From positions 5,983 through 69,982 of the forward strand of contig CAZBTH010000003.1 in the NCBI GenBank assembly GCA_964494885.1: 64,000 nucleotides of DNA. The letters run 5' to 3'. The stretch comes from an uncultured Gammaproteobacteria bacterium. GTDB taxonomy: Bacteria; Patescibacteriota; Microgenomatia; UBA8517. Positions 12,329 to 64,000 of this stretch are shown in pieces. The notes beneath the pieces are model-generated. The model made no database searches, was not told the DNA's origin, and worked only from the letters and a program-made list of their open reading frames with translations. The translations under genes were made by a program, and so were the position numbers. Every line of letters starts with the position of its first letter. The first letter of the stretch is position 1.

Positions 12329-13129
12329 TTAAAGGTGCGTCAGTTTATACCAGAAAATTTTGACGGGGAAAATTGGGAAGGCATTAAAGACACGTTTGAA
12401 TCGATCCGGTTCTGTAATAAGTCGATAGAACCACTCCAGACCTGCTTTTTCCATCCATATCGGAGGTAATTTGGAAACACCCGCAATATAGCGAAAAGTT
12501 CCACCTACTGCCATTGCTCCCTTGATTTTAAGTTTTGAAAGATTATTGTGAATCCAAATTTCCTGTTTAGGATTGCCAAATGCCACAAACAAAAGATCTG
12601 GAGCAAATTTGTTTATCTTGTCAATTGCATCTTTCTGTAATCTTTCGTCTACTTCCGTCTCAGGTTGTCCTTTTTGGTTCAATTTTGGTCCCGCTGCAGT
12701 TTCAATTTTTAATTTTGAATTTTTAATTTTTAACTTTGAAGCTGCTTTAGCAGCTTCATCCCCCAATCCACCGAGAAGAAACACTTTCCAATGTCTTTTT
12801 GCCGCCAGTTTGATCAAACCCTCAAAAAGTTTTCTGCCAGGAATGACATTTAAGCTCTTTCCAAAGAGGAATCTTGAAGCATAGGCAAGTCCCACACCAT
12901 CCGGTACTGCATAGTCTGCCGAATTGAGAGCAATCTTAAGCTCTTTGTTCTTCTGAGCCATTAAAACAAGCTCCGGGTTGGGTGTCACAATACTGAATTT
13001 TGTATTACAGGATATATTTTCTTCCACTCCTGTTAGCAATAAGTTAACCGAACTGCTAAGTATATTAATTCCAAGGATTTGTCCGTATTTCCGACCTTTT
13101 TTGTCTTTTTTTACTCTGATTTTGTTCAT
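12329..13129 (-). CDS. WecB/TagA/CpsF-family glycosyltransferase with an in-frame low-complexity insertion
   Basis: VTPNPELV, ADYAVPDGVG, LLGG, GNPKQEIW and AMAVGGTFRY are TagA-family motifs. The KLKIKNSKLKIE insert is encoded by a tandem DNA repeat at 12700-12745. Confidence 0.75.
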   Translation of the reverse strand: MNKIRVKKDKKGRKYGQILGINILSSSVNLLLTGVEENISCNTKFSIVTPNPELVLMAQKNKELKIALNSADYAVPDGVGLAYASRFLFGKSLNVIPGRKLFEGLIKLAAKRHWKVFLLGGLGDEAAKAASKLKIKNSKLKIETAAGPKLNQKGQPETEVDERLQKDAIDKINKFAPDLLFVAFGNPKQEIWIHNNLSKLKIKGAMAVGGTFRYIAGVSKLPPIWMEKAGLEWFYRLITEPDRFKRVFNAFPIFPVKIFWYKLTHL

Positions 13130-14559: not shown

Positions 14560-14679
14560 AATATTAATTCAAAAATCAAAATTAAAAAATCAAAATTTTG
14601 ACTTCTTACTTTTGAATTGTATCAAGGGCATTATATCAGAATTCAGAGATATCATTGGGAGTCTGATATAATATGAGCC

Positions 14680-46087: not shown

Positions 46088-46603
46088 ATGCTCACCAACT
46101 CAATCGATTCGACTCAAAAAAACTTCTTAAAATACCTAGACACTCTTGGTTTATCCCCCAAAACGCATAAAAACTACAGAAGTGATCTCAACCATTTTAT
46201 TGACTGGCTAATATTACACATCAAATCAATGGGATCATACGTTGATACCCTGACTGAGACCGTCCCTTTTTTGAACAAAGACATACCTTTGAAATATAAA
46301 TCGTTCTTAACAGAAAACAATACTCCAATCAAAACAATTAACCGACGCCTCTCCACACTAAGACATTTAACCAGATATTTTGTGATTTCGAATCTAATTA
46401 CCACGGATATTATGGAGGATATTGAAAATATAAGCTCAGGGAATAAGGTAATAAAAAATATATCAGCTCCCATAGTTGATGCATTCCGAATGCATCTTGA
46501 AACCGAAAAAGTTTCTAAAAACACCGTCAAAAATTATGTAAGCGATATTAGACAATTTTTGTCATGGCTAGAAAAAACAAATTCGTCAAATCTGACCAGT
46601 TAG
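46088..46603 (+). CDS. Integrase-type SAM-like (core-binding) domain repeats; probably the frameshifted N-terminus of the following giant ORF
   Basis: FLKYLDTLGLSPKTHKNYRSDLNHFIDWL...TINRRLSTLRHLTRYFV matches the phage-integrase N-terminal SAM-like domain. A second copy starts at IVDAFRMHLETEKVSKNTVKNYVSDIRQFLSWLEK and is completed in the next ORF. Confidence 0.6.
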   Translation: MLTNSIDSTQKNFLKYLDTLGLSPKTHKNYRSDLNHFIDWLILHIKSMGSYVDTLTETVPFLNKDIPLKYKSFLTENNTPIKTINRRLSTLRHLTRYFVISNLITTDIMEDIENISSGNKVIKNISAPIVDAFRMHLETEKVSKNTVKNYVSDIRQFLSWLEKTNSSNLTS

Positions 46604-46613
46604 TCTAATTTAC

Positions 46614-49600
46614 ATGGACAAACTACCAAAACTAACATCGAAAATAATCAAATCCTATCAAAATGAGATTGCCAGAAGTGATTCGGCCGCAACCGCAAAG
46701 AGAAAAATAGTTTCTTTGAAAAAATTTCTTGATTGGGCAAAAACCAAAGGCCTTATAGATATAAATTTGGAAGAGACAATCATTACTCAGGCTAAAAACG
46801 AAACAAAATTCCCCGCAAAAAAAGCGTTAAATATCAGATTCCAGAACTTATACAAAAGATATCGCAATATACCAGGAACTTCTTATTTGAATATTGCAAT
46901 ACTTGTAATCCTATCCTCCACCTTAGGACTCGGTATATACAATCAATTCTTTAAAAACGCCACAAACCCATTTGCTGCAACGTCTTTAGTTCGACCTAAC
47001 CGCTATCTTTCTTTTCAGGGCAGATTAACTAATCAATTTTTGAATCCGGTTACAGCTGTAACAAGTGTAGTTTTTACTCTATATGACGCGGCAAGCTCCG
47101 GTACCACGCTTTGGACCGGCACCTGTAATGTAACTCCGGATACGGATGGGGTTTTTTCAACCCTTCTTGGAAGCGACTGCGGTTCGGAGATTTCCAGTAG
47201 TGTTTTTTCTGACAATGCCAGTGTTTGGCTGGGAGTTAAAGTCGCAGCAGACGCTGAGGCCACCCCCAGAATCCAGATTGCAACTGTTGCCTATGCCCTA
47301 AATTCGGAAACTCTTCAGGGATACCCGGCCTCTTCAAGTGCAACAATTAACACAGTGCCCGTGGTCAACAACTCAGGACAAATTGTCTTGGCGGTGAGCT
47401 CCCCTAAAATTCAATCCACGACAGGTACCTTTGCAATCGAAGGGCAGGCCATAACAATACAAACTCCAAGTGCATCAAATGGTAATGTTACTATAGCACC
47501 GGATGGCACGGGACAGCTTAACTTGACATTTACAGGCGCCTCCCCGGGGTCTGGAACCGGAATGGTGAACGCAACCGACGCCAACTTAACCTCCGGTTCC
47601 TTGTATTACGGTTCGGTTGCTTCTGACGCATCAGGTTACAACCTTTTGCAGTTACAATCCGGATCCACTCTTTCCAATAAATTCGTAGTCGATTCAGCCG
47701 GAAACGCATCTGCATCGGGTGATTTAACTTTGGCGGGAGTTAGTTCGATCCAAACAACAACATTTAGTCCCCTTACCATTGGCGGAAGTACAACAGGAAA
47801 TATAGTACTATCACCATCAAACAATATCGCGGGGGGCAATGTTTCGCCTGGAGTTACAAATGTGACCGATCTAGGAACCGCTTCCCTCTTGTTTAGGAAT
47901 ATTTATGCAACAACTTTGTACCAAGGCGTCAACCAAGTCTGTGATGCCGGGGGTGGGGTTGCAGGATGCGCAGGCGCAAACTACTGGAGACTTGCCAATA
48001 ATGTCCTTTCCCCTATCCAAGTTGCATATGATTTGACAATCGGCGGAAGCGCAACAGGTAGCGCCTTCCAGGTTTATGCCGCAACGGGAAATGTGGCTTC
48101 AGCCGGAGTAGGACAATTTGGTAGTACCTCGGTGTCAACCTATTCGAGGTTTGGGTCAGCAACTACAGAGCATTCTCTTTCTTCAGCCAGCGATCTCTTG
48201 GTAAACGGAAAGTTGGAACTTAACGATACTCTCTTTCTCGACGGAGGAACAATTGCAAACTCTGCAGGCACGGGAACTATTACTTTTTCCCCTACACCAA
48301 CAACAGCCTCCAACGCCCTTTCCGCAAGCAACTGGCTTATAGAAAATACCGCCAATGTTGGTCAAGCGGCCCTTATGGTTAATCAGGTAAAAGGTGGGGA
48401 TATTTTTACAGCCTCTCAATCAGGAATTCCCGTATTTACGGTGGCCCACCTGGCAGGTACAGTGGCTAACGGCATAACTTTAACTGGTGCGGCTACAGGC
48501 AGCGGCCCAACCATAACAGCAACCGGTTCCGACACAAACATAGCACTTTCCATAGATTCAAAGGGTACCGGAGCATTAAATTTGAATAATACTGCAACAG
48601 GGGATATTCTCTTGGCAGGAGGAGTTGGAGCAACGGGATGCACACTAACCAACTCCACCGGCGCGCTTTCTTGCGCTGGAAACATATCAACAACTGCCAC
48701 AAGTGGAACTCAAGGCTGGTGGCAGCGTGTTGCCGGTAACCTATCTCCGATTAATCTTAATGATACTATTTCTGCCACCACCTCGGCCGCTACAGCCATG
48801 ACCATCACCCAAACCGGCGCTTTCGACGCTTTCTTGGTACAAGACGCGGCTGGTGACACCACTCCATTTGTCATCGACCAATCGGGCAACGTCGGCATTG
48901 GTGACACCACTCCAAGTTATTTACTTGATGTTGCAGGTACTCTTAATTCAACGGGAAGCACCACGCTTGGAACCGGAGCTTCTTCAGTTAATGTTATTGG
49001 TTCTACCACCACTCCAGGAACATTAACTTTACATGGAGCTACAACTCTAGACGACACTTTCACAGTATCTGGAAATAACTTAACATCTCTAGGAGGCAAT
49101 CTCACTCTTAGCGGTACCACAATTACCGCTTCCTCGCTTGCTACACTAACAACTTCATCTGCAGTTGCTTGGGGTGGGGCTACCGAGCTTACCTTTACTG
49201 CTGATAACGCAACTATCTATGGATCGAATGCTGCTAGTGGAAACCTTATTCTTGATGGGACTAGTAATGCTACAAAAACTTCCAGTTATGTGATTATCCA
49301 ACCAAATGGTGGCAACGTCGGAATCGGTACTTCTGCACCTACGGCTACATTAGAAATATTAGCTGATGTTGATACTCCTTCAGGTAACGCCATAGAGGTT
49401 CAAGCGGTCGAATCAGCTAATCTTAACGACCAAGATGCTGATGATATTACTTTCACAAATGCTACAACATGCTGGACATACGGTGCCGGCTGGGCTCGTT
49501 CTGGTGGGACGGCCCTTCATTCCGCGTTAGTAGGTACTGAAAATTTATCTTGCAATTTAACAGACGGCTATATTGATAATAATCAAATATATAGAATGAC

Positions 49601-51497
49601 TTTTGATATGGGAGGAAGAACAGCTGGCACTGTCACTCCAAAAGTTGGAACGGCAGCTCACGATGCAATTAGTGCTAATGGTTCATACGATCTTACCTTC
49701 GACGCTACAGCTAATAATACAGATATAATTTTTACTCCTGACATTAATTTTAACGGTTATATTGATAATGTTTATATCTATCGAAGAGCCGTCAATACTG
49801 TTATTTCTGATACTGGAAGAGTGGGTATTGGACGAGCAACACCTGCATACTTTCTTGATGTTTTGGCTCCGGAAAATGGAGTCATTGCCAGATTCTTAAG
49901 TGACAACACCACTGGTTGTACTTTGGCAACTGGAGGTACTATTTCTTGTACTTCAGATGTCCGGCTAAAACAGGATATTGAAGACACTTCTTTTGGCCTA
50001 GATACTATTATGAACTTAAGACCAGTAGATTTTAACTGGAAAAGCGGAGCTTCAATTTATAAAAACCTTGGTTTTATTGCCCAAGAAGTTGAAACGCTTA
50101 TCCCTAATCTGGTTAACGTTGATCAAGATAATGGTTACAAACAACTCAATACAACAGGGCTTATTCCTGTCCTCACAAAAGCTATACAAGAACAGCAAAT
50201 ACAAATTTCTACCCTCTCCACCCAACTCGCGGATTTAAAGATCAATTCTACAGGCGATATCACTTTATCCGGTAATCCAGTTTCCGGTTATACTGTCTCT
50301 ACTCCTATCGGCATTACTCAAAAAATTGGTGCTTTTGCCAATTTAGTTGCTGCAAATATACACGCAGGGGCGCTGATTACTGATGAACTGCTTACTGATA
50401 AACTGAATGCGGTTGTAGCAACAGTTCAAAAGCTGACAACTAATAGTTTAGCGGTTAAACTGATATCCCCTCTTCCTGATCAAACTGACGTTACAGTAAA
50501 ACTCGGAGGTGAGGCAACACCATCAGGAAAACTGGCGATTCAAAACTCACAAGGTGATGAAGTGGCTGCTATCGATTCGTCTGGCAACGCAACATTCTCC
50601 GGTACAGTAAACAGTAACCAGTTAACAGTAAACAGTGAAGCAACTATTTCCGGAACTCTTTTTGCAGACAACATAAAATCAAAAAGTCTGGATGAAATTC
50701 AAGCACTTTTGACAAAAGTCCAGACTGACCAGGGTCTTCTAAAGGACGCTCAAAGCTGGAACACCAACACCGCAACAAACTCAGCAACTCTCTCAGGTCT
50801 TTCCGCCAGTGATCTATATATAACAAACCAGGCCGCAATTAATTCACTGTCTATTTCTAAAACTTTAGCTGTCGGTTCTGATCTTGTATTTAGTTCCTCA
50901 GTCAACAGTGAACAGTCAACAGTGAACAGCATTGACACTTTGTCTGCTCCACTTCGGATTCAGAGTTTGACAATGGCACCAGTTGAGCTTATGGCCGGAC
51001 TTGTAACAATAGATACACACGGAAATGTTACGATCGGCGGAGACTTGAATGTAGCAGGCAGAATACACTCCTCCGGTCTAACCTTGCAAGGAACAAACTT
51101 ACAAGATGACAAAATTCTTAATCTCCAAAGTCAAACCGGAATCCTGGTCGCCTCGGTGGACGCAAGTGGATCGGCCGAATTCGAATCAGTTTATACTCCC
51201 CAACTTATTATTGCGGGGGCTGACGCAACAACCCCAGGTGCTGTGGTAAACGGAGCAACAACAACAAACTCAACAATCGGACATACGATAATACCGGCAG
51301 GAACAAATGAGATAACAATTATCAATCCCAAGGTTACCGACTATACCCTAATCTATGTGACACCAACCTCGTCAACCCAAAATAATGTATTATATGTAAA
51401 GAGCAAACAAAAAGGACAATTCACAGTTGGATTTGCAATCCCGATTGATACAGACGTCTCATTCAATTGGTGGATAGTCCAGGTACAAAAATGGTAA
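46614..51497 (+). CDS. Giant (1627 aa) membrane-anchored surface fibre protein with an internal S74 endosialidase-chaperone-like domain
   Basis: N-terminal SAM-like half-domain (SKIIKSYQNEIA...SLKKFLDWAKTKGLI), TM helix, Thr/Gly/Ser/Ala-rich beta-rich repeats. SDVRLKQDIEDTSFGLDTIMNLRPVDFNWKSGASIYKNLGFIAQEVETLIPNLV...GYKQLNTTGLIPVLTKAIQEQ matches the S74 intramolecular chaperone domain. Confidence 0.7.
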   Translation: MDKLPKLTSKIIKSYQNEIARSDSAATAKRKIVSLKKFLDWAKTKGLIDINLEETIITQAKNETKFPAKKALNIRFQNLYKRYRNIPGTSYLNIAILVILSSTLGLGIYNQFFKNATNPFAATSLVRPNRYLSFQGRLTNQFLNPVTAVTSVVFTLYDAASSGTTLWTGTCNVTPDTDGVFSTLLGSDCGSEISSSVFSDNASVWLGVKVAADAEATPRIQIATVAYALNSETLQGYPASSSATINTVPVVNNSGQIVLAVSSPKIQSTTGTFAIEGQAITIQTPSASNGNVTIAPDGTGQLNLTFTGASPGSGTGMVNATDANLTSGSLYYGSVASDASGYNLLQLQSGSTLSNKFVVDSAGNASASGDLTLAGVSSIQTTTFSPLTIGGSTTGNIVLSPSNNIAGGNVSPGVTNVTDLGTASLLFRNIYATTLYQGVNQVCDAGGGVAGCAGANYWRLANNVLSPIQVAYDLTIGGSATGSAFQVYAATGNVASAGVGQFGSTSVSTYSRFGSATTEHSLSSASDLLVNGKLELNDTLFLDGGTIANSAGTGTITFSPTPTTASNALSASNWLIENTANVGQAALMVNQVKGGDIFTASQSGIPVFTVAHLAGTVANGITLTGAATGSGPTITATGSDTNIALSIDSKGTGALNLNNTATGDILLAGGVGATGCTLTNSTGALSCAGNISTTATSGTQGWWQRVAGNLSPINLNDTISATTSAATAMTITQTGAFDAFLVQDAAGDTTPFVIDQSGNVGIGDTTPSYLLDVAGTLNSTGSTTLGTGASSVNVIGSTTTPGTLTLHGATTLDDTFTVSGNNLTSLGGNLTLSGTTITASSLATLTTSSAVAWGGATELTFTADNATIYGSNAASGNLILDGTSNATKTSSYVIIQPNGGNVGIGTSAPTATLEILADVDTPSGNAIEVQAVESANLNDQDADDITFTNATTCWTYGAGWARSGGTALHSALVGTENLSCNLTDGYIDNNQIYRMTFDMGGRTAGTVTPKVGTAAHDAISANGSYDLTFDATANNTDIIFTPDINFNGYIDNVYIYRRAVNTVISDTGRVGIGRATPAYFLDVLAPENGVIARFLSDNTTGCTLATGGTISCTSDVRLKQDIEDTSFGLDTIMNLRPVDFNWKSGASIYKNLGFIAQEVETLIPNLVNVDQDNGYKQLNTTGLIPVLTKAIQEQQIQISTLSTQLADLKINSTGDITLSGNPVSGYTVSTPIGITQKIGAFANLVAANIHAGALITDELLTDKLNAVVATVQKLTTNSLAVKLISPLPDQTDVTVKLGGEATPSGKLAIQNSQGDEVAAIDSSGNATFSGTVNSNQLTVNSEATISGTLFADNIKSKSLDEIQALLTKVQTDQGLLKDAQSWNTNTATNSATLSGLSASDLYITNQAAINSLSISKTLAVGSDLVFSSSVNSEQSTVNSIDTLSAPLRIQSLTMAPVELMAGLVTIDTHGNVTIGGDLNVAGRIHSSGLTLQGTNLQDDKILNLQSQTGILVASVDASGSAEFESVYTPQLIIAGADATTPGAVVNGATTTNSTIGHTIIPAGTNEITIINPKVTDYTLIYVTPTSSTQNNVLYVKSKQKGQFTVGFAIPIDTDVSFNWWIVQVQKW

Positions 51498-53416
51498 AAA
51501 CATTAGAAGAAATCCAAAAATACATCCTTTACATAATAATAGCGATATTCCCTATTTTTATATTCATTAGCTCGACCTCACCCGAAGTTCTTTCTAAATT
51601 GATATTGCTCGCAATCGGCATAACTATCGTCATGGCAACTTGGATCATTAGAATGATCATAACCGGCAACATATCTTTCCATACAGGCAAATTTGATCTA
51701 GGAGTTCTTCTTATAACCCTCGCTTATGTTCTTTCGGGGATATTTAGGACCAATAACAAACCTGAGGCTTTCTTTATGCCCGGTACAGCCTCTTTTGTGG
51801 TTGCTCTGGCGATAATTTATTTCTTAATAAATCAACTGGATAAAAAAGCTAAAACAGAGTCTTTAGTTTCATTTTTTACTTCCGGTATATTCCTTTCTTT
51901 ATCCGTAATCTTTAGCGAACTTGAAATATTTACAAAAATTCCTCAACTTCCCGCATTTATAAAAAGTGTGTCATTTAACCCACTCGGAGGAATTTTACCG
52001 TCAATAATCTATCTGGTTCCGACGGCGCTTATCGGGATTTCGTTAATTATAAAGGACAGTGATATCGTCAAAAGGGTTTTTTGGATTGTGGCAAACGCCT
52101 TAGTTGTTATGGCTATGATAATTCTGATCGGAAAGTCATTCCCCGGAAATGTCCAATCACCGAAATTTCCAAGCCTACAGACTTCTTGGGAGGTTGCAGT
52201 TGGAACTGTTGCAAAAAACCCGATTTTTGGAATAGGTGCGGGAAATTACTTAACCGCGTTCAATCTTTATCGCCCTGTTACTTATAATCAAACAGATCTC
52301 TGGTCAGTTAAGTTTTCAACAGCAAGCAATTTTTATCTGACTACGATCACTGAAACCGGTTTATTAGGATTGGCCACCTTGGCCTTTTTACTGTTAAGTA
52401 TTCTCAGATTCTTTGCGCACTCCCTGACTGCAAAAAACATGAATGAGGCATTAAGTGAAGGTCTGGAAAAGCTGGCTATTGCCGCCATTGTTATAATCCT
52501 GGCATTTTACCCCGCCTCCCCCATATTTGTGATCTTTCCGCTTTTTGTTCTTTTGGGTGTATTTTCGAAATCGGAAACCAAAACTTTTACTGCCTCAAAT
52601 ACAAAATTTGCAACAATTACGATTGGAATTATTTTGGGAATAGGAGTCGCTCTTGCCAATTTCTTTGGAGCCAAGGCGGTCATTGCCGAAGCCACATTTA
52701 AAAAATCCCTTGACTCTCTCAGTAAAAATGACGCAAAACAAACTTTTGATTTAATGCAAAAGTCAATACAAGGAAACTCCGGAATTGACAGATATCACGC
52801 CTCCCTCGCCCAGGTTGACATGGCTCTTGCACAATCAATCGCAAACAAGAAAGACATTACAGATTTCGACAAAAATACAATTACCCAACTGGTACAGCAG
52901 GCAATCACAGAAGGTAAAGCAACTGTTGCCCTCAACCCCGAAAGATCGGGCAACTGGGAGGTGTTGGCACAGGTATATCGAAGTGTAATGCCATTTGCTA
53001 CCGGTGCCGATCAATTCACGATTCAATCTTATTCTCAGGCAATAGCATTAGATCCAATAAATCCAAATCTACGAATAGCATTGGGTGGTGTTTATTACGC
53101 CCAGGGGCGCTACGACGATGCTGTCGATGTCTTTAAGCTTGCCATTCTCGCAAAACCGGACCTTGCTAACGCCCATTACAATTTGGCAATGACCTATAAG
53201 GCAAAGAGGGAATATGCCAAAGCAATAACCGAGATGAATTTGGTCCTATCTCTGGTTGCCAAAGATTCAGACGACTACAAATTGGCAAAAAGTGAACTCG
53301 ATAATTTGATGAAAGATAAACCGGTTTCTGTCAATACTGTCGACGGGCAGGGTCAGTTGACTGCCCCACAATCTGTAAATCCCAGCAATATCAAGCCACC
53401 AATTCCCCTTCCCTGA
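51491..53416 (+). CDS. O-antigen ligase/polymerase-family (Wzy_C-like) membrane protein with C-terminal TPR repeats
   Basis: Many TM helices. NPIFGIGAGNYL is a Wzy_C-like loop. C-terminal TPR repeats (AHYNLAMTYKAKREYAKAI). The ATG overlaps the stop of the giant ORF. Confidence 0.65.
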   Translation: MVKTLEEIQKYILYIIIAIFPIFIFISSTSPEVLSKLILLAIGITIVMATWIIRMIITGNISFHTGKFDLGVLLITLAYVLSGIFRTNNKPEAFFMPGTASFVVALAIIYFLINQLDKKAKTESLVSFFTSGIFLSLSVIFSELEIFTKIPQLPAFIKSVSFNPLGGILPSIIYLVPTALIGISLIIKDSDIVKRVFWIVANALVVMAMIILIGKSFPGNVQSPKFPSLQTSWEVAVGTVAKNPIFGIGAGNYLTAFNLYRPVTYNQTDLWSVKFSTASNFYLTTITETGLLGLATLAFLLLSILRFFAHSLTAKNMNEALSEGLEKLAIAAIVIILAFYPASPIFVIFPLFVLLGVFSKSETKTFTASNTKFATITIGIILGIGVALANFFGAKAVIAEATFKKSLDSLSKNDAKQTFDLMQKSIQGNSGIDRYHASLAQVDMALAQSIANKKDITDFDKNTITQLVQQAITEGKATVALNPERSGNWEVLAQVYRSVMPFATGADQFTIQSYSQAIALDPINPNLRIALGGVYYAQGRYDDAVDVFKLAILAKPDLANAHYNLAMTYKAKREYAKAITEMNLVLSLVAKDSDDYKLAKSELDNLMKDKPVSVNTVDGQGQLTAPQSVNPSNIKPPIPLP

Positions 53417-55845: not shown

Positions 55846-56649
55846 ATGAAGTCACTGCTACCCAAATTATTATTTTTTTACTCAACAGTTGTTGCACTAC
55901 TGATAACGGTTAGCAGTGGAAGGTTCGTTTTTCTCTTTTTACCAGTTCTTACCTATTTTCTTTTAGAAACCACACGACGGTTCTTTTTCTCGCAAGACCA
56001 GATTCTCTCGGTAGGCATCGAAAAAATATTGATATATTACAGCTTTGTAATAAGCAGCCTTGTAGTTGTAATGGGGTTTGTATCTGCGGGGAGTTTGACC
56101 CAAATGATCTCCGGAGTGATATTTGTTCCATTACTCATTTATTTTGCATCACAGGTTTTTCCCAGAAGAACCCGCGCTGTCCGCCTTCCGAAGACTCCAG
56201 AAATAATAATTCAAACAAACGAGGATAAAGTTGACGAAAAAACCATAAAGCTTAAGAAGGAGGGGGTAGACATTGACCGCAGAACATTTTTAAAGCTAAT
56301 CGGTTCGGCGGGACTTAGCCTTTTCTTATTCTCGATTTTTACCAAGCGGGCAGAGGCTGCATTTTTCGGAAGCGTTCCCGGACCGGGCACTGTTTCTGTT
56401 AAAGATATTGCAGGAAATAAAATTAACCCTGCCGAAAAACAGCCGACAGACGGCTATAGAATCAGCCGGCTCGACGACGCATCCCCCGCCTACTACGGAT
56501 TTACCAACAAGGACGGCGCCTGGTTTGTGATGAAAGAATTGGAAGACGGGTCCTACCTTTACCGAAAAGGAAACTCCGGTTTTGCCGCCGCCTGGGCAGA
56601 ACGAGGAAATATCGGTATTACATACGACGAGTTTGAAAATGTGTTTTAA
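55846..56649 (+). CDS. Hypothetical protein: N-terminal 4-TM region followed by an internal twin-arginine-like signal and a soluble domain
   Basis: DRRTFLKLIGSAGLSLFLFSIFTKRAEAAF resembles a Tat signal with an AxA cleavage site, but sits about 130 aa into the ORF. Confidence 0.4.
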   Translation: MKSLLPKLLFFYSTVVALLITVSSGRFVFLFLPVLTYFLLETTRRFFFSQDQILSVGIEKILIYYSFVISSLVVVMGFVSAGSLTQMISGVIFVPLLIYFASQVFPRRTRAVRLPKTPEIIIQTNEDKVDEKTIKLKKEGVDIDRRTFLKLIGSAGLSLFLFSIFTKRAEAAFFGSVPGPGTVSVKDIAGNKINPAEKQPTDGYRISRLDDASPAYYGFTNKDGAWFVMKELEDGSYLYRKGNSGFAAAWAERGNIGITYDEFENVF

Positions 56650-56699: not shown

Positions 56700-57203
56700 T
56701 TGAGTATGAAACTTACAAAAGAGATTTGGCTCGTAGTTGCGTTTGTTGCTTTTCTTATGGCTTGGCTTATCGATAGGCTAGCCGGACCTGTATCGATCGC
56801 TGTCGGAAACCCGATTGCATTTCTTTCCTCCTCAAGACTCCTTAACACCTATCCGTTTACGGCGACGGCAATAATCATAAGAACTCTAGCAATTTTTATT
56901 TCAGCAATGTTGATTTTTTCTCTCTTTAACAGGAAATACTTTACCAAAGCCGTAGTACTTACCTTCCTTTGCATTCTGGCCGAATTCTTTTCAATTCAAC
57001 AGCTTGCAACCGGGTTTAGAGTCACCACAATTCAATGGACGCTTTCTATTGCCTACGCAAGCCTCATCTTGGTGGTCGGAATCGTCTGGCTGATTTTAAT
57101 GGGAATCTGGGCAAGCTTTAACAAAGAAGCAACCCCCACCGAAAGCCCCGGCGGGCCAAGAGAAGATTCAGTGCTCGAACCGCCCTCGGAAAATAGAGGA
57201 TAG
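56700..57203 (+). CDS. Polytopic membrane protein, hypothetical
   Basis: About 5 TM helices. Confidence 0.45.
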   Translation: MSMKLTKEIWLVVAFVAFLMAWLIDRLAGPVSIAVGNPIAFLSSSRLLNTYPFTATAIIIRTLAIFISAMLIFSLFNRKYFTKAVVLTFLCILAEFFSIQQLATGFRVTTIQWTLSIAYASLILVVGIVWLILMGIWASFNKEATPTESPGGPREDSVLEPPSENRG

Positions 57204-57204
57204 A

Positions 57205-58032
57205 TCACAAATTTTTAAGATATTCCTTTGCCAATTCTTGAAAATTCCCGGCGAACGACATTACCGACTCCCTTTCTTCTATAAACGGAGTTAAATCGTC
57301 TTCAATCATCTCTTTTGTAACTTTTTTAATCTTTTGGTTAATCAGTTTAATAGCCTTAACTTTAGACAAGCCTGTTTGGTTTTCAACCTGAACCCAATTG
57401 GGTTTTATTCCCTTCTCCAGATACCAAATCAGATCATAATAATCCCTGCCTTTAAACCTGACAACATTTTCCACTCCTTCGATTTTCTCTCTGGTTAATA
57501 TTGCGCTGATTTTGCCCGCAAACAAATCTTCAATAGAGTATCTCCTCATCACAAAGGAAAGATTCTCATAACTTTTGGCTGTGACCTCCACCCTTGCATA
57601 GGGCTTGTCGTTTTGAGAAAAATCAATCCGGATATGCAATATATTAGTCTCACTTTGATCTACCGGTAACCCAATTTCTTTGAGTATCGGAAACTTCAAG
57701 TAAATTGTTCTTCTATTGTTTGCAAGTTTAACTGACAAATCGTCAAATTTTAGCCTTTCGGAAAAATAATTTTTTAAAGCATCGGAAAAATCTTCTATGT
57801 TAAAATTTGACCCGACCTCAACGTCAAAATCTAAATCTTCCGAAAGTCTTGGCAGCTTAAAACAAAACCTCAAGGCGGTCCCGCCCTTAAATAAAAGGAT
57901 CTTGCCCCAATTGCCCGTAAAGACGAAGTTGAGTACGTAATACTGAATGGCCTCTTTTAACAGGCTTCTAACATAGAGCTTATTTTTATCTTTATTCTCC
58001 AGATATACTTGTTTTAATTTAGAAAGAAACAT
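57205..58032 (-). CDS. AbiEii-like nucleotidyltransferase toxin (type IV TA), copy 1
   Basis: LLFKGGTALRFCFKLPRLSEDLDFD shows the GGTAL and SEDLDF hallmarks of the AbiEii family. Confidence 0.75.
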   Translation of the reverse strand: MFLSKLKQVYLENKDKNKLYVRSLLKEAIQYYVLNFVFTGNWGKILLFKGGTALRFCFKLPRLSEDLDFDVEVGSNFNIEDFSDALKNYFSERLKFDDLSVKLANNRRTIYLKFPILKEIGLPVDQSETNILHIRIDFSQNDKPYARVEVTAKSYENLSFVMRRYSIEDLFAGKISAILTREKIEGVENVVRFKGRDYYDLIWYLEKGIKPNWVQVENQTGLSKVKAIKLINQKIKKVTKEMIEDDLTPFIEERESVMSFAGNFQELAKEYLKNL

Positions 58033-58660
58033 AATTTTTTTCTATACTTTTCAATACCGTTGACATTTTTTTACTCTTGGCTGATTTTACATACAATTTA
58101 AACTCACCCAGATCTTCTTTTGTAAAACTATCCCAATTTATTCTAGCATCCAAAACGGATACACCGATATTCTCCATTCTTTTAAGATAAAAATAATCAA
58201 ACAATGCTTTAGCTTTGGAAGCGATATAAATTGTCTTATCTTGCCATTTCTTTTGCCTAAAACCCAAAAATAAGGTTGACTTAATACTTTTATATATAAA
58301 GTTTCCCAAAAAATTATTATATTTTCTGGTCGTTTTCGTGGTAATTGAAGTTATGGAAAAAACAGATTCGGGGATCAGACCTTCGTTAGAAAGCACGTAT
58401 TCACCGGATATATATGAAGGTTCTCTTAAAACGTTGGTAATATACTCAAAGTAAGGTTCCTTTTCTACTCTTTCGAAAAAAGGGTCGGTTACATACAAAC
58501 CTTTTTTTAAAACTTTCAAATAACCGATTTTAACGAGACGTTCTAATTTTTTGTCAAGATTCCTGCCTTCCTTATCGACAAGGATAGATGCCGTACTTTT
58601 GTTGAAAAAAGGCAATTTCTCGAGCTCCTCCTGATACTTTATTCCAGAAATACTAATCAT
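58019..58660 (-). CDS. AbiEi-like antitoxin/transcriptional regulator, copy 1
   Basis: Lies upstream of copy-1 AbiEii and overlaps it by 14 nt. N-terminal wHTH-like region ...LERLVKIGYLKVLKKGLYV. Confidence 0.6.
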   Translation of the reverse strand: MISISGIKYQEELEKLPFFNKSTASILVDKEGRNLDKKLERLVKIGYLKVLKKGLYVTDPFFERVEKEPYFEYITNVLREPSYISGEYVLSNEGLIPESVFSITSITTKTTRKYNNFLGNFIYKSIKSTLFLGFRQKKWQDKTIYIASKAKALFDYFYLKRMENIGVSVLDARINWDSFTKEDLGEFKLYVKSAKSKKMSTVLKSIEKNYVSF

Positions 58661-58708
58661 TTAGTAGTAATTCTAAAACAAATGGGGGTATTTGTCAAGT
58701 CTTCCCAA

Positions 58709-59431
58709 TCAGAAAAATTTATCCAACTCCATCAAAAGCGGTTTTGGGAATGCGTCAATCGCGGGCTTCATGCTTTTAGGAAGAAAGTGTAAAAGTTCAT
58801 CGCCAAATTTAATTTGTTTTTTCTCCAATATTTCTCGAATTTTCTTCAATTCGTCTTTTTCTGAAACAGTTAGCTCACCATTTTTCAATAAGAAATATAC
58901 ATCATAAAAATCTCTGGGTTTACTTCTTGTAAGTGCTGCTTGAATTTTCTCCCCTATCATTTCTCTTTTAGGCAACAAATATGCCTGATAGGTTGGAATA
59001 TATTCATTCAAAATATCAACTATGTCATAGTCAATACCTATTTTTTTTCTTAATGAAATTTGAATATTAATTGGAATTTTCAAAGTCAAAATATTAACAT
59101 ATAATTTGGCCAAATACCCACCCGTTGTTCCTTTAGACTCTTCAATATCACAATTTAAACCATTGTTTGATAATTCTTCCAAGACAGAAAGAATTATCTT
59201 TTCAATCTCTCTATTGTCAACCTCACAAGCTGAGAAATCTAGATCTTCTGAAAAACGAGGACTTTTATATGCTAGCCTGTATGCAGTCCCGCCTTTAAAA
59301 AGAATTTTATTGGAATTTTCAATTTGATATAACGAAGACAAAAACAGATGCTGGGCATATTCCCTATGAACATTATCAGTTGTAGTTTGAAATTTGTTTT
59401 GTATTATTAACAGTCTTTCGTAAGTTAGCAT
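58709..59431 (-). CDS. AbiEii-like nucleotidyltransferase toxin, copy 2
   Basis: ILFKGGTAYRLAYKSPRFSEDLDFS. Confidence 0.75.
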   Translation of the reverse strand: MLTYERLLIIQNKFQTTTDNVHREYAQHLFLSSLYQIENSNKILFKGGTAYRLAYKSPRFSEDLDFSACEVDNREIEKIILSVLEELSNNGLNCDIEESKGTTGGYLAKLYVNILTLKIPINIQISLRKKIGIDYDIVDILNEYIPTYQAYLLPKREMIGEKIQAALTRSKPRDFYDVYFLLKNGELTVSEKDELKKIREILEKKQIKFGDELLHFLPKSMKPAIDAFPKPLLMELDKFF

Positions 59432-59432
59432 A

Positions 59433-60008
59433 TTATTTAAAAACTTTTTTTAATAAATTGTCCAATCGTTTATCGTTAAAATAATTTGCGTAATTAAAAA
59501 TCTTTTGCTTGTCTAGTTTGACAATATTCATTCGATCATTTAAAACTCGCTTGCCTAGAGCTACAAAATATAAATAATCTACAAGCGCTTTCTCGGGATC
59601 AGCTATAAGTATGTCATTAATTAAATCATAACCTGTATAGGCTTGTTTTTTAATTTTATAATATCGATACATAGTCTGTTCGTCGCCAAATTCTCTTGTG
59701 GCCTTTGTGGTTACAGACGTAATTGTATATACAGTCTCCGGGATAATGTTGTGTCTGGAGAGTGCTGTATCTAAAGATATATATGACGGTGAATAAACTT
59801 TGTTCGCAATTCTAAATTTGTCGTTGACTTCATTTCGCAAATAATAAACACCCCTTCGCGGACTAATTAGATACCCTTTAGCCTTATACCTTGAAAGTTT
59901 AACGGCGACAACTTTTCTATCCACATTAAAAATGTTCACAAAATCCTGATTTGTAAATACTTCCAAATTATGCTCTTTTAATGTCTGCCTGATTTGTTGG
60001 AAATTCAT
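59433..60008 (-). CDS. AbiEi-like antitoxin, copy 2
   Basis: Lies 1 nt upstream of copy-2 AbiEii. ...LSRYKAKGYLISPRRGVYYL. Confidence 0.6.
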   Translation of the reverse strand: MNFQQIRQTLKEHNLEVFTNQDFVNIFNVDRKVVAVKLSRYKAKGYLISPRRGVYYLRNEVNDKFRIANKVYSPSYISLDTALSRHNIIPETVYTITSVTTKATREFGDEQTMYRYYKIKKQAYTGYDLINDILIADPEKALVDYLYFVALGKRVLNDRMNIVKLDKQKIFNYANYFNDKRLDNLLKKVFK

Positions 60009-60111
60009 TTTCTTAACAATTATGTTAACTATGTGAATTCATATTAAAACTGATTTGGGGCTTTATCAAGAAATCGTTTGCTTACCAAATTCTGATTTGG
60101 CCAAGCTTTGC

Positions 60112-60516
60112 TTACACACTCTTCTTCCCCACCACAAGCTTCCAGGCAATTCTCTGAACTATATAAGCCCCAAGGCCAATTGCAAAAGTCCAGAAATAAT
60201 TGGTGATTCCAAATCCTGCCACTTGAGAAAATCTGGAAACTATCCAAAAAGCGAAAACGTTTGCGCTAAAAAAATAGCCGAATGTAACCGCGGAGCTATC
60301 GAACTTGATTCCTTTGCTCATAGCAAAATCCCAAAGTACCCAGATGAAAAAAGTTACCCAAAAACCGGTATAAATAGCCGACTCGATGGGATTAAAGCGC
60401 CAGTTGCCCAAAACTATATTTTGAGAAAACATACTTCCGAAAAAATACAAAACAATAGAGTTGACTAACCAATAAGCAAAATATAATAAATGGTTATACA
60501 TAAATCTCACCCCCAT
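60112..60516 (-). CDS. Four-TM membrane protein, hypothetical
   Basis: ORF with 4 hydrophobic helices. Confidence 0.45.
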   Translation of the reverse strand: MGVRFMYNHLLYFAYWLVNSIVLYFFGSMFSQNIVLGNWRFNPIESAIYTGFWVTFFIWVLWDFAMSKGIKFDSSAVTFGYFFSANVFAFWIVSRFSQVAGFGITNYFWTFAIGLGAYIVQRIAWKLVVGKKSV

Positions 60517-60657
60517 TCGAAACAGTGATTAGTGACTAGCGATTAGAGATTAGTTTAGTTCCAGACTATACCCTAAAACCTATACGCTAAACCCTTTCTG
60601 CAATTTGAATATATCACAAAAACATTCCAACCGAAATGGAAATTTAGTATACTGATT

Positions 60658-62244
60658 TTGAATAACATGGCGGCACCAATTTACACTTCAGACCTAACAG
60701 ATCTTCTAACCGATATGGCCTCAACAACGGGCTGGACGGCTCTTGGGGGTGGAGCCGGTGGTTTGGTTGCACCTGAGACCGACTTTTTTATCCAAGGAAA
60801 CAATTGTATTTCCAAAGCAGGCTGGTCGTCTGCCGTAAAGGGAATGGTCTACAATGTAGGCAGCGGCCAGACAGTTGCTAGTGGCAAAGCAGTTTTTATG
60901 TGGATTTATTACTGGGCGCCAAACTCTTTGGACGTTGAAGCTGGCACTCCAGGAGGACTCCAGCTACTTATTGGTAGCTCTACTACAGCCTACAAAGCCT
61001 GGGACATCCGCGGAAAGGACACCCTTACTTACGGAGGTTGGGTTTGCGGAGTAGTCGACCCAACCACCGGCGCTGATGACGTCACCGGCTCTCCATCCGC
61101 CACACTTCAATATTTTGGCGCAACAGCTAATGTTCCGGGGGCGGGTCCATCAAAAGGACAGCCTTTGGGAATTGATGCTTTTCGCCACGGACGTGATTTT
61201 ACCTGCACAAACGGCGACGCCTCAAATGGTTATGCAACTTTTTTAGGAGCCGCCTCTTATAATGACAATGTCACGAGGCGCTACGGCCAAATCCAAGCAA
61301 CTGACGGTGGTTATTTGCAGCAAGGAAGGTTTTTAATGGGATCCTCTTCTATAGCCGTTGACTTTCGCGACAGCAATAAATCAATACTTATAGCCAGGAC
61401 TCCAAAAGTTTCATCTAGCTTCAACACTTTTGAAGTACAAAATGCTGCAAGCCGTGTTGACTGGACAAATATTACCATCACGGCTTTAGGTACAACTTCG
61501 AGGGGAGATTTTGTCACAACCGACAACGCCAACATAAACATTGATAGTTGTACATTTACGGATATGGGAACGTTTGATTTCCAATCGAATAGCACTATTC
61601 TTACATCTACATTTCGAAGGTGTAATTTGGTAACACAAAGTTCTGCCGTCTTCACCGATTGCACTTTTGACTCAACCAATGACTCAACAAAGGCCATTCT
61701 GTCGAACAATCCCGCCAATATTTCAAACTGCACTTTTATTTCTAGCGGCACCAAGCATGCAATAGAGATCAACACGGCCGGAACATATTCTTTTACCGGA
61801 AATGCTTTTGTCGGTTATGCCACCGGCAACGGCTCAACCGGCAATGAAGTTATTTACAATAATTCAGGCGGTTCTGTAACACTTAATCACTCGGGAACTA
61901 CCGGCACTATTTCTGTCAGGAACGGCTCCGGGGCCACGACCACGGTCGCAGTCTCGGCTACATTAACCATTGAAATCCGCAACTCGGATGACGGAACACT
62001 AATCACCCAAAATTGTGAAGTAACCGTTGTCAAGGTGTCAGATGAATCGATTCTTTTTCATGAGGATGATATAACGGACGGCATAACTGAATATTCATAC
62101 TCCACCGGTTCGGGAACATCAATCTATATAAATGTTATTAATACAGCGGGTTATCAAAACAAAGTTGTGTTTCAAACATTGTCTGCAAACAGTGAAACTG
62201 CGAAAGTATTTTTGGATACAGACAGAATTTACACCAACCCCTAA
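60658..62244 (+). CDS. Ser/Thr/Gly/Asn-rich parallel-beta-helix-like protein, no signal peptide (possibly phage-derived fibre or tailspike)
   Basis: Repeated motifs such as NCTFISSGTKHAIEIN, DSCTFTDMG and TDCTFDS. About 49% GC against about 36% in the flanks. Confidence 0.5.
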   Translation: MNNMAAPIYTSDLTDLLTDMASTTGWTALGGGAGGLVAPETDFFIQGNNCISKAGWSSAVKGMVYNVGSGQTVASGKAVFMWIYYWAPNSLDVEAGTPGGLQLLIGSSTTAYKAWDIRGKDTLTYGGWVCGVVDPTTGADDVTGSPSATLQYFGATANVPGAGPSKGQPLGIDAFRHGRDFTCTNGDASNGYATFLGAASYNDNVTRRYGQIQATDGGYLQQGRFLMGSSSIAVDFRDSNKSILIARTPKVSSSFNTFEVQNAASRVDWTNITITALGTTSRGDFVTTDNANINIDSCTFTDMGTFDFQSNSTILTSTFRRCNLVTQSSAVFTDCTFDSTNDSTKAILSNNPANISNCTFISSGTKHAIEINTAGTYSFTGNAFVGYATGNGSTGNEVIYNNSGGSVTLNHSGTTGTISVRNGSGATTTVAVSATLTIEIRNSDDGTLITQNCEVTVVKVSDESILFHEDDITDGITEYSYSTGSGTSIYINVINTAGYQNKVVFQTLSANSETAKVFLDTDRIYTNP

Positions 62245-62303
62245 CCCTACAGCATATTGACAAGTCGTGGACTAAACACTATAATAATTATAGTGTTTGG
62301 ACT

Positions 62304-62891
62304 ATGAAATATAATAAAAAGTCGATCGCCAGTATTCTGCGTTCTCCAAAAACAGTTTTTACCTTTAAAGACGTTTCATTAATTTGGGGCGACACCAATA
62401 AAAAAAATGTTATAGCAAGCGCTAATTATTACGTTAGAACCGGTCAACTCATTAGAGTTAGAAAGGGAATCTATAGCAAAAACGAAAATTATGACCGAAT
62501 GGAACTGGCTAATAGAATTTTTGTTCCATCATATATTAGTTTCGAAACAGTGTTGGGCAAGGAAGGTGTTAATTTTCAATATTACGGCCAAATATTTATT
62601 GCCTCTTATCTTACCCGTAACATAATTATCAACAACCAAACTTATTCATTTAGAAAAATTAAGAATGAAATCCTTGTAAACCCATTAGGAATCAACAACG
62701 AAAATGACATATCAACGGCAACCAAAGAGCGGGCTTTTTTGGACACCATTTATATAAACGGGGACTATTATTTTGACCACATTGATTCACTTGATTGGAA
62801 AAAGATATTTGAAATCCTTCCAATATATAACAAAAAACAAATGGCCAAAAAAGTTAAATATTGGTACAATTATTTTAAAGAAAACAGATAA
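62304..62891 (+). CDS. AbiEi-like antitoxin, copy 3
   Basis: Immediately upstream of copy-3 AbiEii. ...YYVRTGQLIRVRKGIYSK. Confidence 0.6.
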   Translation: MKYNKKSIASILRSPKTVFTFKDVSLIWGDTNKKNVIASANYYVRTGQLIRVRKGIYSKNENYDRMELANRIFVPSYISFETVLGKEGVNFQYYGQIFIASYLTRNIIINNQTYSFRKIKNEILVNPLGINNENDISTATKERAFLDTIYINGDYYFDHIDSLDWKKIFEILPIYNKKQMAKKVKYWYNYFKENR

Positions 62892-63584
62892 ATGTCGCTT
62901 AATATACCAAAACACAGAGATATCCTTTTACAAATTCTAAAGGATGTATATTCTGATACAACAATTTCTTCATTTTTAGGATTTAAAGGAGGGACCGCCG
63001 CTCTGCTTTTTTATGATTTAAGCCGTTTTTCAGTAGACCTGGATTTCGATTTGATTGATGAAACTAAAGAAGATGAAGTTTTTGAAAAAATAAAAGTGAT
63101 TTCTCAAAAATATGGTGTGCTGGAGGCTAAAAAGAAACGTTTCAATTTGATATTTATTATTTCCTATGCAAAAAATGAGCAAAAGATCAAAATTGAAATT
63201 AACCGCAGACATTTTGGTTCAAAATACCAACTAAGGACTTATTTAGGTATCTCCGTACTTGTTATGAATGAGGAGGATATGTTTGCCCATAAATTGATGG
63301 CTATGAACGAAAGATTTGAGAAAACCAGCCGTGATATATATGACGTTTGGTTCTTTTTGAAAAAAGGTTGGCCAATTAATAAAAAAATTATTGAAGAAAG
63401 ATCGGGTAAATCTTTTATTAGTTTATTAAAAGACAATTTGAATAAATTAGAAAATATGAATAATGGCAATATTCTAAAAGGAGTTGGCGAACTTTTAACG
63501 CAAAGTCAAAAGGACTGGGCAAAGGCAAAACTAAGAGATGATACAATATTTCTTTTGAAATTAAGATTGGAAAACGAAAATTAG
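62892..63584 (+). CDS. AbiEii-like nucleotidyltransferase toxin, copy 3
   Basis: LGFKGGTAALLFYDLSRFSVDLDFD. Confidence 0.75.
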   Translation: MSLNIPKHRDILLQILKDVYSDTTISSFLGFKGGTAALLFYDLSRFSVDLDFDLIDETKEDEVFEKIKVISQKYGVLEAKKKRFNLIFIISYAKNEQKIKIEINRRHFGSKYQLRTYLGISVLVMNEEDMFAHKLMAMNERFEKTSRDIYDVWFFLKKGWPINKKIIEERSGKSFISLLKDNLNKLENMNNGNILKGVGELLTQSQKDWAKAKLRDDTIFLLKLRLENEN

Positions 63585-63688
63585 TATATCAATTCCGTCT
63601 TAAATATATCAATTCCGACGTAAATATAAATCCCCCTTGACAGACCTTGCCACGGTCGCTGTAAACTGTTTCTAATCGATTTCAAAGA

Positions 63689-63730
63689 TTAGAAATATAG
63701 AAGATTAGAAATATAGAAGATTAGAAATAA
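63689..63730. repeat. 18-nt tandem repeat (AGATTAGAAATATAGAAG, about 2.5 copies) just upstream of a start codon
   Basis: agattagaaatatagaagattagaaatatagaagattagaaataaATG. Confidence 0.8.
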
Positions 63731-64000
63731 ATGGCGAAAATTGTTGATCCAGATTCATTAAACCAAGCAACCGAAGTCGTAATTGATACGACTTTAAAGA
63801 CAATCCAGCTTCTCGCAACCGGAAACTTAAGTAATGCCTCCCCCGGTTCAACGTCCGGCGTTACCCTCCAAGCCGTTTATTCGTTCTTAAAAGAGGAATG
63901 GAAAACCGATACGGCACTAAACAAATTTAAATTTCCCATCAAAATGTTTACGAAGACTGACGGAATCATGATTAACGCTTGGGATTGGAAAGATGCAACC
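63731..64000 (+). CDS. 5' part of an unknown protein (partial, runs off the window end)
   Basis: MAKIVDPDSLNQATEVVIDTTLKTIQLLATG... Open to the end of the window. Confidence 0.45.
   Translation, partial: MAKIVDPDSLNQATEVVIDTTLKTIQLLATGNLSNASPGSTSGVTLQAVYSFLKEEWKTDTALNKFKFPIKMFTKTDGIMINAWDWKDAT

Follow-up and report, generated by a model that had tools for sequence, protein, structure and literature searches.

AbiE is a documented abortive-infection system and is among the most abundant defence systems. For AbiEii, the toxin of the Streptococcus agalactiae system, the nucleotidyltransferase (NTase) motifs I-IV have been defined by mutagenesis, and the mutants no longer bind GTP and are no longer toxic (Dy et al., 2014, PMC3985639). 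Motifs I and II follow the pattern hG[G/S]...DhD with an arginine in motif II, motif III reads K-h-x-A...R and motif IV reads +DxxD, and the AbiE promoter is autoregulated through inverted repeats (PMC3985639). Mycobacterium tuberculosis has four AbiE/MenAT paralogues, and in MenT3 a serine is the phospho-acceptor used for neutralisation. Defence-island behaviour has already been noted in Patescibacteria (bioRxiv 10.1101/2024.03.08.584096). Here we analysed a stretch of 64,000 nucleotides (nt) from contig CAZBTH010000003.1, referred to as the window, which carries three pairs of AbiEi antitoxin and AbiEii toxin genes (pairs 1 to 3) around the genes for a small membrane protein, TM134, and a large beta protein, P528 (Table 1). 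Our preferred interpretation, to which we assign a probability of about 85%, is that a native, phage-related gene cluster of a Patescibacteria bacterium (Microgenomates type) has received three unrelated, self-contained AbiE cassettes in two of its gaps, and that these gaps are a recurrent hotspot.

The native cluster encodes, in this order, an SH3-membrane protein, p267, TM167, TM134, P528, p523, a p164-like protein, p170 and TatA/TatC. The related contig L001, with a P528 of 84% identity, carries in sequence dCache, SH3 protein, p247, TM171, a homologue of TM134 without a gene call (73% identity), P524, p523, p164 and p170; the TM171 stop codon abuts the stop codon of the TM134 homologue and the spacer between P524 and p523 is only 160 nt long. 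In a DNA alignment with L001, homology is lost between 57125 and 60111 and comes back precisely at 63585, immediately behind the stop codon of AbiEii-3. The two tandem pairs thus occupy the gap between TM167 and TM134 (insertion A, about 57204-60111, approximately 2.9 kb, made up of one insertion or two), whereas pair 3 separates the P528 stop codon from the promoter element of p523 (about 62245-63584, approximately 1.3 kb). The same cluster is found without these AbiE pairs in L002/L013, in L010/L015 (Daviesbacteria) and in L016, L018 and L020. Since the cluster is syntenic in relatives without these pairs, TM134 and P528 are native. By this comparison of gene order, TM134, P528 and the next gene are native and the AbiE pairs are the foreign parts. 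The initial annotation had proposed a defence island, which agrees with a variable segment in which the pairs are missing, with clean junctions, from the same gaps in L001, L020, L002 and L010, i.e. the island is not conserved across relatives. It had also taken the beta-helix and membrane genes to be foreign. This is contradicted by syntenic copies of 73-84% identity in relatives without these pairs and by the third-position composition of P528 (see below), so that the earlier interpretation is partly supported overall but largely reversed on which genes are foreign.

Nucleotide composition was compared with that of 45 other genes of the window, which have a guanine-plus-cytosine (GC) content of 0.409 +/- 0.031 and a GC content at third codon positions (GC3) of 0.388 +/- 0.043. 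The AbiE genes deviate from this reference, with GC z-scores of about -3 in five of six genes and GC3 z-scores of -1.6 to -2.8 in four of six. TM134 has a typical GC3 (z +1.0). For P528, a GC content of 0.458 goes along with a GC3 of 0.418 (z +0.7) and a value of 0.510 at second codon positions (z +2.4); its GC excess is thus due to an abundance of Thr, Gly, Ser and Ala residues, which acts on codon position 2, and not to foreign codon bias. P528 had been described with 49% GC against about 36% in its flanks. It does lie above the AbiE flanks (30-36%; window mean 40.3%), but its overall value is 45.6-45.8% and 51% is reached by a single 500-nt window only. P528 as a recent foreign gene was ruled out by GC3 and synteny.

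The three pairs are only distantly related to each other, with pairwise identities of 25-30% among the toxins and 30-33% among the antitoxins. The nearest non-identical relatives of AbiEii-3 share 64-74% identity, far above the identity to its neighbours in the window, and occur across Gracili-, Magasanik- and Peregrinibacteria. Two of these relatives belong to AbiEi-AbiEii pairs in unrelated contexts, one of which adjoins a serine recombinase and TraC/TraG-like genes. Because of the 25-33% identity and the relatives of pair 3 in unrelated contexts of other phylum-level groups of the candidate phyla radiation (CPR), the pairs represent three independent acquisitions.

The assignment of the pairs themselves stood up well. 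An open reading frame (ORF) listing reproduced the annotated coordinates and strands over 57205-63584, with two pairs in tandem on the minus strand and one on the plus strand within 6.4 kb. All three toxins matched the AbiEii profile PF08843 of Pfam, which had been suggested as a check (93.1, 88.0 and 65.5 bits; cut-off 22.5), and all six proteins matched AbiEi or AbiEii models of PADLOC over nearly their full length (best E-values 8e-28 to 2e-72), including the antitoxins over the full length (E 1e-42 to 1e-61). In an alignment of the three toxins FKGGTA, R-x-S-(E/V)-DLDF, K-(I/L)-x-A...R and RDxYD are present throughout, and hGG...DLD, K(I/L)xA...R and RDxYD are invariant over a 35-sequence alignment; these residues correspond to motifs I-IV as defined in PMC3985639. 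Of the hallmarks named initially, S(E/V)DLDF holds, but GGTA(L/Y) fails in the third toxin, which has GGTAA. An NTase profile is thus matched by three of three toxins, and for AbiEii-3, alone of the three, the fold is also seen in a structure model. This AlphaFold model (predicted local distance difference test, pLDDT, 93.8) has its best Protein Data Bank matches in the DUF1814 NTases 4ok0/4o8s (JHP933; E 4e-8, template-modelling score over the query, TMq, 0.60-0.64), followed by TglT/Rv1045 of M. tuberculosis (6j7n) and then by other Pol-beta-type NTases. A sequence profile of AbiEii-3 retrieved 4ok0/4o8s among the solved structures at E ~6e-13 (4ok0 5.8e-13) and 6y56 at E 1e-3, and the single AbiEii-1 sequence gave no match to a solved structure.

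The antitoxins can be assigned through the PADLOC models and gene order, less securely than the toxins. In all three pairs the antitoxin gene comes first and the toxin gene second, with a 14-nt overlap in pair 1, a 1-nt gap in pair 2 and a 0-nt gap in pair 3, and this bicistronic antitoxin-first layout is the published AbiE arrangement. A local hidden Markov model scan of the remaining 57.6 kb of the window found no other AbiE genes; therefore, the clustering of the three pairs is real. Judged by their sequences, the three AbiEi-AbiEii pairs are confirmed as genuine. As such they are ordinary, i.e. divergent but canonical additions to a very abundant family.

Sigma-70-like promoter sites were found upstream of each pair. 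In pair 3, a perfect inverted repeat overlaps the perfect TTGACA-17-TATAAT promoter, and its arm length of 12 bp was reached in 0 of 5,000 shuffles. A homologous cassette in L024 (68% identical) has the same promoter/repeat layout with another repeat sequence. The promoter and the predicted operator repeat of pair 3 fit an autorepression by AbiEi. The tandem 20-nt repeat with TTGACA that follows pair 3 is located 14 nt after the P528 stop codon in L001 and is also present in L020, and it looks like a putative regulator-binding site of the native cluster. Further downstream, at 63685-63732, the 16-nt unit AAGATTAGAAATATAG occurs three times in tandem, reaching into the p523 start codon; these repeats are absent at the matching place in L001 and L020.

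The surrounding window is bacterial chromosome, with genes for ArgRS, LeuRS, UppS, an ABC transporter and peptidases and with two tRNAs. A phage or prophage was ruled out by ArgRS, LeuRS, UppS, the peptidases and the tRNAs; in addition, the surroundings of the cluster showed no gene for a terminase, portal or capsid protein. The whole arrangement recurs in the independent assemblies L008, L021, L022 and L023 (10 contigs read). In L021, p523 is followed by a 141-aa (amino acid) protein, p170 and then TatA/TatA/TatC, and no further AbiE genes were found downstream in this contig. In the window, p523 opens at 63731 and continues past the end. The gene for P528 had been given as a 528-aa ORF, which exists as such, but nearly all of 150 listed homologues align from ORF residue 4 and independent gene calls likewise give 525 aa, so that translation probably starts at the ATG at 60667. 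At 46088-51497, a 171-aa ORF, which covers no more of a phage integrase than its N-terminal SAM-like domains, precedes a 1,627-aa protein. The latter contains a Peptidase_S74 (endosialidase chaperone) domain, as is typical for fibres and spikes of phage tails, and is succeeded by a Wzy_C/TPR protein (51467-53416).

Table 1. Features of the AbiE segment and of its native borders, with positions in the window.
Feature	Position	Strand	Evidence or remark
TM167, multi-pass membrane protein, left anchor of insertion A	56700..57203	+	61% identity to L001, 69% to L020
AbiEii-1 toxin, 275 aa, DUF1814 nucleotidyltransferase	57205..58032	-	PF08843 E 3.4e-26; PADLOC AbiEii E 6.9e-35; motifs I-IV
AbiEi-1 antitoxin, 213 aa	58019..58660	-	PADLOC AbiEi E 9.4e-43; NCBIfam NF047376 E 2.3e-11, under cut-off
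Promoter-like site of pair 1, TTGACA-17-TAGAAT	58670..58698	-	11/12 against consensus; 6-bp inverted repeat in spacer (weak, maybe chance)
AbiEii-2 toxin, 240 aa	58709..59431	-	PF08843 E 1.2e-24; PADLOC E 7.8e-28; motifs I-IV
AbiEi-2 antitoxin, 191 aa	59433..60008	-	PADLOC AbiEi E 3.6e-42; Pfam AbiEi_4 18.7 bits, cut-off 25
Promoter-like sites and short palindromes upstream of pair 2	60019..60069	-	9/12 matches; 6-bp inverted repeats; weak evidence
TM134, native small membrane protein, 134 aa, divergent from P528, right anchor of insertion A	60112..60516	-	73% identity to its positional counterpart in L001 and L020
P528, beta protein of three domains, native and phage-related, 525 aa with the ATG at 60667 as start (ORF 60658-62244, 528 aa)	60667..62244	+	Synteny, AlphaFold model, phage homologues
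Promoter of pair 3, perfect TTGACA-17-TATAAT	62257..62285	+	12/12 against consensus
Operator-like perfect inverted repeat AAACACTATAAT-a-ATTATAGTGTTT over the -10 box of pair 3	62274..62298	.	12-bp arms
AbiEi-3 antitoxin, 195 aa	62304..62891	+	PADLOC AbiEi PDLC02255 E 8.1e-61
AbiEii-3 toxin, 230 aa	62892..63584	+	PF08843 E 9.2e-18; PADLOC E 2.3e-72; DUF1814 NTase fold in model
Putative native regulatory element of p523: tandem 20-nt repeat (TATATCAATTCCG; TATATCAATTNCG; TATATCAATTCCGNCNTAAA, twice), then TTGACA	63585..63640	+	Kept in L001 and L020
p523 N-terminus, conserved P528 partner	63731..64000	+	94-96% identity to L001/L020; 523 aa in full contig L021

Across related genomes, the P528 cluster shows variable defence content between conserved flanks. 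In L002/L013 the gaps hold an AAA_14/DUF4143 ATPase (the PADLOC candidate system PDC-S01), in L003/L014 (Beckwithbacteria) three PDC-S01 ATPases together with another AbiE pair, and in L010/L015 an IS200-type Y1 transposase. L020 carries a PDC-S01 ATPase and a Y1 transposase upstream of the cluster, and L001 an AbiEii-like gene and a Gp49/HTH (helix-turn-helix) pair directly after p170. The PDC-S01 matches have E-values of 1e-46 to 1e-108; in L003 the ATPase genes (8758-9867, 11597-12748 and 14239-15351) are arranged around the Beckwithbacteria P528 homologue. In the fetched bacterial loci, of about 20 kb each, AbiE-family genes occur solely within or at the edge of the P528 cluster. Gene content therefore suggests that the gaps of this cluster are a recurrent landing site for defence or TA (toxin-antitoxin) genes in different lineages. 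Two further observations concern L020, in which p523 is split into ORFs of 145 and 363 aa (10001-11571), by a frameshift or an assembly error, and in which two genes for four-helix-bundle proteins of the bAvd/23S_rRNA_IVP type (12697-13026 and 14869-15234) follow the module.

Several observations weigh against our reading. AbiEii-1 has a native-like GC3 of 0.40, so it may be an older acquisition, and neither an integrase, a transposase, a target-site duplication nor attachment repeats were found at the junctions. Among the antitoxins, the Pfam profile AbiEi_4, the search for which had been proposed earlier, did match pair 2, but at 18.7 bits against a cut-off of 25 and in no other pair, and the NCBIfam model NF047376 gives the antitoxins 25-44 bits against an equivalog cut-off of 150. 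The operator signal is strong for pair 3 only, since pairs 1 and 2 have 6-bp repeats that may have occurred by chance. Finally, the comparison set comprises about seven non-redundant bacterial contexts that are all centred on P528, so that an enrichment over the genome background is not established.

It could also be that the cassettes are purely selfish addiction modules without a defence role, which accumulate where a non-essential region tolerates insertions. We regard this as possible, with a real but minority chance of being correct. TA cassettes are highly mobile, the Y1 transposase also enters the same gaps, and the MenAT relatives of M. tuberculosis have been studied as TA and not as abortive-infection systems. 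However, the co-occupants elsewhere are mostly defence-associated (PDC-S01, AbiE), and AbiE has the documented defence role and abundance mentioned above. The selfish and the defence readings are not mutually exclusive.

In order of the native cluster, P528 and its downstream partners form the part with phage relatives. The P528 family is large (at least 654 matches; 1,403 cluster representatives at 50% identity) and consists of hypothetical proteins from Patescibacteria (Beckwith-, Davies-, Collier-, Shapiro- and Kaiserbacteria); a search for related loci with P528 as the single query protein yielded 8. Two database labels stand out here. L012 (CAZTGB010000007.1, the same contig as L001) is labelled Gammaproteobacteria, but both the genes it contains and its P528 cluster (84% identical) point to Patescibacteria, and it is probably mislabelled or mis-binned. 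L019 (QMZJ01000091.1), assigned by binning to 'Candidatus Altiarchaeales archaeon', contains a homologue of P528 (51% identity over residues 215-505) followed by a relative of a 596-aa protein that is found downstream of the P528 cluster in Beckwithbacteria L004; either this contig stems from CPR or a phage and was binned wrongly, or the family may really occur in both domains.

The AlphaFold model of P528 (pLDDT 93.7; predicted template-modelling score, pTM, 0.86) comprises three parts: a jelly-roll at residues 1-205 like the capsid turret of HFTV1 (Haloferax tailed virus 1; 8qpg, E 2.4e-5) and the carbohydrate-binding modules CBM11 and CBM61, a beta-helix-like region of 24 short strands without a helix at residues 212-432, and an Ig/CnaB/transthyretin-like (Ig, immunoglobulin) sandwich at residues 433-520. 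The initial designation as a beta-helix protein is consistent with this model, but no solved beta-helix was significantly matched. The suggested comparison with tailspike and pectate-lyase folds yielded no significant profile or structure match, a profile search against solved structures retrieved a pentapeptide-repeat protein only (E 0.94), and the hydrophobic autocorrelation of the middle region showed no sharp repeat period. The N-terminus has no hydrophobic segment, in line with the reported lack of a signal peptide. Neither P528 nor TM134 matched Pfam, PHROGs, PADLOC or NCBIfam. TM134, which had been annotated with four transmembrane segments, contains four aromatic-rich hydrophobic segments that make this plausible, but its Kyte-Doolittle peak of 1.48 stays below the classical 1.6 and the topology is not proven. 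Searches of p523 and p170 against solved structures gave nothing meaningful, and a homologue search with the 90-residue N-terminus of p523 returned fragments only. In p267 (55846-56649), several hydrophobic segments at the N-terminus precede a twin-arginine-like motif, DIDRRTFLKLIGSAGLSLFLFSIFTKRAEA, around residue 145, and TatA/TatC genes follow the module in every relative.

The best viral match of P528 is the full-length predicted structure A0A1P8DIV1 (TMq 0.84, 28% identity). In a tblastn search with P528, Virus Rctr197k (197 kb) was the one record returned. This relative of PaBG is a jumbo myovirus (PMC7412058), and its adjacent genes 178, 179 and 180 are homologues of p523, P528 and p170 and lie near a PHROG virion structural protein. 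L009, a 142-kb phage-like contig, has homologues of P528, p523, p164 and p170 in the bacterial order (60%, 61%, 30% and 37% identity), followed by a T4 gp13-like neck protein (Phage_T4_gp13) and a tail sheath protein (Phage_sheath_1), and L011, a 327-kb contig with RNA ligases, PNKP and a TnsA/NUMOD3 endonuclease, has homologues of p523, P528 and p170. The module P528-p523-p164-p170 (window 60667-64000, L021:7776-13364, L009:1780-5641, L011:6265-10097, L007:9488-13836) is conserved in chromosomes of Patescibacteria and has counterparts of 31-61% identity in Rctr197k, L009 and L011, all of them large and of phage or phage-like type; all four families are unannotated. The SH3 protein, p267, TM167 and TM134 occur in bacterial contexts only and were missing in the phage contigs. 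The L009 copy of P528 nests among bacterial copies in a rough neighbour-joining tree. The domains of P528 differ in their affinities: the N-terminal domain shares 72% identity with the L009 phage copy against 46% with Daviesbacteria, whereas the C-terminal domain shares 32% with L009 against 58% with Daviesbacteria. In L020, the closest contig by flanking genes, the P528 slot (7990-9714) encodes a 574-aa protein of which the N-terminal domain alone is shared (34% over residues 10-249), which is a domain replacement. Such modular domain exchange is shown by phage receptor-binding and decoration proteins. Taken from the genes alone, P528-p523-p164-p170 would represent a phage-related structural, fibre- or decoration-like module. 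The earlier suggestion that the enclosed genes may be phage-derived therefore proved right, given the phage homologues of P528 and its downstream partners, but in a deep sense only, as P528 is resident, ameliorated and syntenic.

A functional link between the module and the cassettes would exist if P528-p523-p170 recombines with infecting phages that have homologous genes and thereby import moron-like cassettes, or if the module itself helps to sense or exclude phages and defence genes next to it are co-selected. We consider this unlikely. The cassettes are moron-like in having their own promoter and deviant GC, the phage copies reach up to 60% identity and nest in the bacterial clade, and the AbiE-family genes in the fetched loci and the 64-kb window lie only in or at the edge of the module. 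On the other hand, the phage copies of the module are without such inserts and the close homologues of AbiEii-3 reside in unrelated contexts. A search of the toxins against 50,697 phage records retrieved only one Salmonella record held there, which gives no support for phage-borne AbiE, and the sample is small and centred on P528. It would similarly be a long shot that the module descends from a phage fibre or decoration module by domestication, still exchanges domains with Patescibacteria phages and is tied to immunity, as a receptor-masking or decoy device or as a recombination entry point by which phages bring in moron-like defence cassettes; if true, this would explain the repeated AbiE, PDC-S01 and other cassettes in its gaps.

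That the beta-helix and membrane genes are horizontally acquired cargo, for which the AbiE pairs were selected as stabilising or guarding elements, is very improbable and is largely refuted by synteny. P528 exceeds its immediate flanks in overall GC, belongs to a gene pool shared with phages and shows mosaic domain exchange, and AbiE systems can stabilise mobile elements (PMC3985639), but relatives that lack these pairs keep TM134, P528 and p523 in synteny, the compositional outliers are the AbiE genes while P528 has a typical GC3 and its excess in codon position 2, and the right junction shows that the AbiE-3 cassette was put into a pre-existing P528-p523 spacer; nothing indicates that AbiE stabilises an enclosed cargo, as had been proposed. 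A local duplication with subsequent divergence, i.e. the true triplication assumed at first, has next to no probability and is refuted at any recent timescale, since the adjacency and common orientation of two pairs are outweighed by the 25-33% identity between the pairs, by best PADLOC sub-models that all differ among the toxins (PDLC02293, PDLC02323, PDLC02324) and separate antitoxin 3 (PDLC02255) from antitoxins 1 and 2 (PDLC02241), and by the 64-74% identity of AbiEii-3 to proteins of other CPR groups.

By analogy to the characterised systems, AbiEi, with a winged helix and a C-terminal neutralising domain, would repress its own promoter and keep AbiEii inactive, possibly via induced phosphorylation of the conserved serine in front of the DLD motif. 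AbiEii, a DUF1814 Pol-beta-type nucleotidyltransferase, would be freed upon phage infection or antitoxin loss and would then arrest growth, probably by nucleotidylation of tRNA acceptor ends, which would lead to abortive infection or addiction. Toxicity, neutralisation and phage defence of the three pairs are in this way inferred from S. agalactiae AbiE and M. tuberculosis MenAT.

The more valuable outcome of the analysis is the corrected polarity, i.e. which genes are foreign, together with a widespread, unannotated four-gene module that is common to Patescibacteria chromosomes and large phages and in which defence genes appear to settle repeatedly. Should the module prove to be a surface structure of the episymbionts or a device for interaction with phages, it would be relevant to CPR host attachment or phage resistance. 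The AbiE pairs illustrate the accumulation of defence cassettes in tiny CPR genomes, which is useful but expected.

With the AbiE type IV TA systems (Lactococcus AbiE; S. agalactiae AbiEi/AbiEii) the three pairs have in common the antitoxin-first bicistronic operon, the DUF1814/PF08843 toxin with motifs I-IV, an antitoxin probably of the AbiEi family, an operator-like inverted repeat in the promoter of pair 3 and a variable, defence-island-like location. They differ in the low NCBIfam scores of the antitoxins and in being very divergent from the characterised proteins. The predicted operator differs as well, since here a single 12-bp palindrome covers the -10 box, whereas S. agalactiae has two 11-bp half-sites 27 nt apart. 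MenAT (MenT1/3/4; TglT/Rv1045) and Helicobacter pylori JHP933 share the DUF1814 NTase fold and the occurrence of several paralogous systems per genome, and the R76/S78 region of MenT3 corresponds in position to R-x-S-x-DLD of the toxins, by motif and not by structural superposition. Sequence identity to these proteins is only 12-18%, and a tRNA acceptor-stem substrate as well as auto-phosphorylation would be expected here by analogy.

P528 resembles phage receptor-binding, fibre and decoration proteins in its jelly-roll, lectin-like N-terminal domain, beta-helix-like middle and Ig-like C-terminus, in its mosaic domain exchange and in having homologues in phage structural regions beside neck and sheath genes. 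In contrast to phage fibre and tailspike proteins, it is without a Pfam, PHROG or NCBIfam match or a significant pectate-lyase or tailspike match, and it is chromosomal and syntenic over several Patescibacteria lineages, together with membrane genes found in bacteria only and with Tat genes. As in defence islands and integration hotspots, conserved flanks enclose lineage-specific gaps that hold AbiE, PDC-S01, HigB/HigA-like pairs and IS200-type transposases. Unlike in those, the junctions here revealed no integrase or attachment repeats, and the anchor is a phage-related structural module instead of a tRNA or a housekeeping operon.

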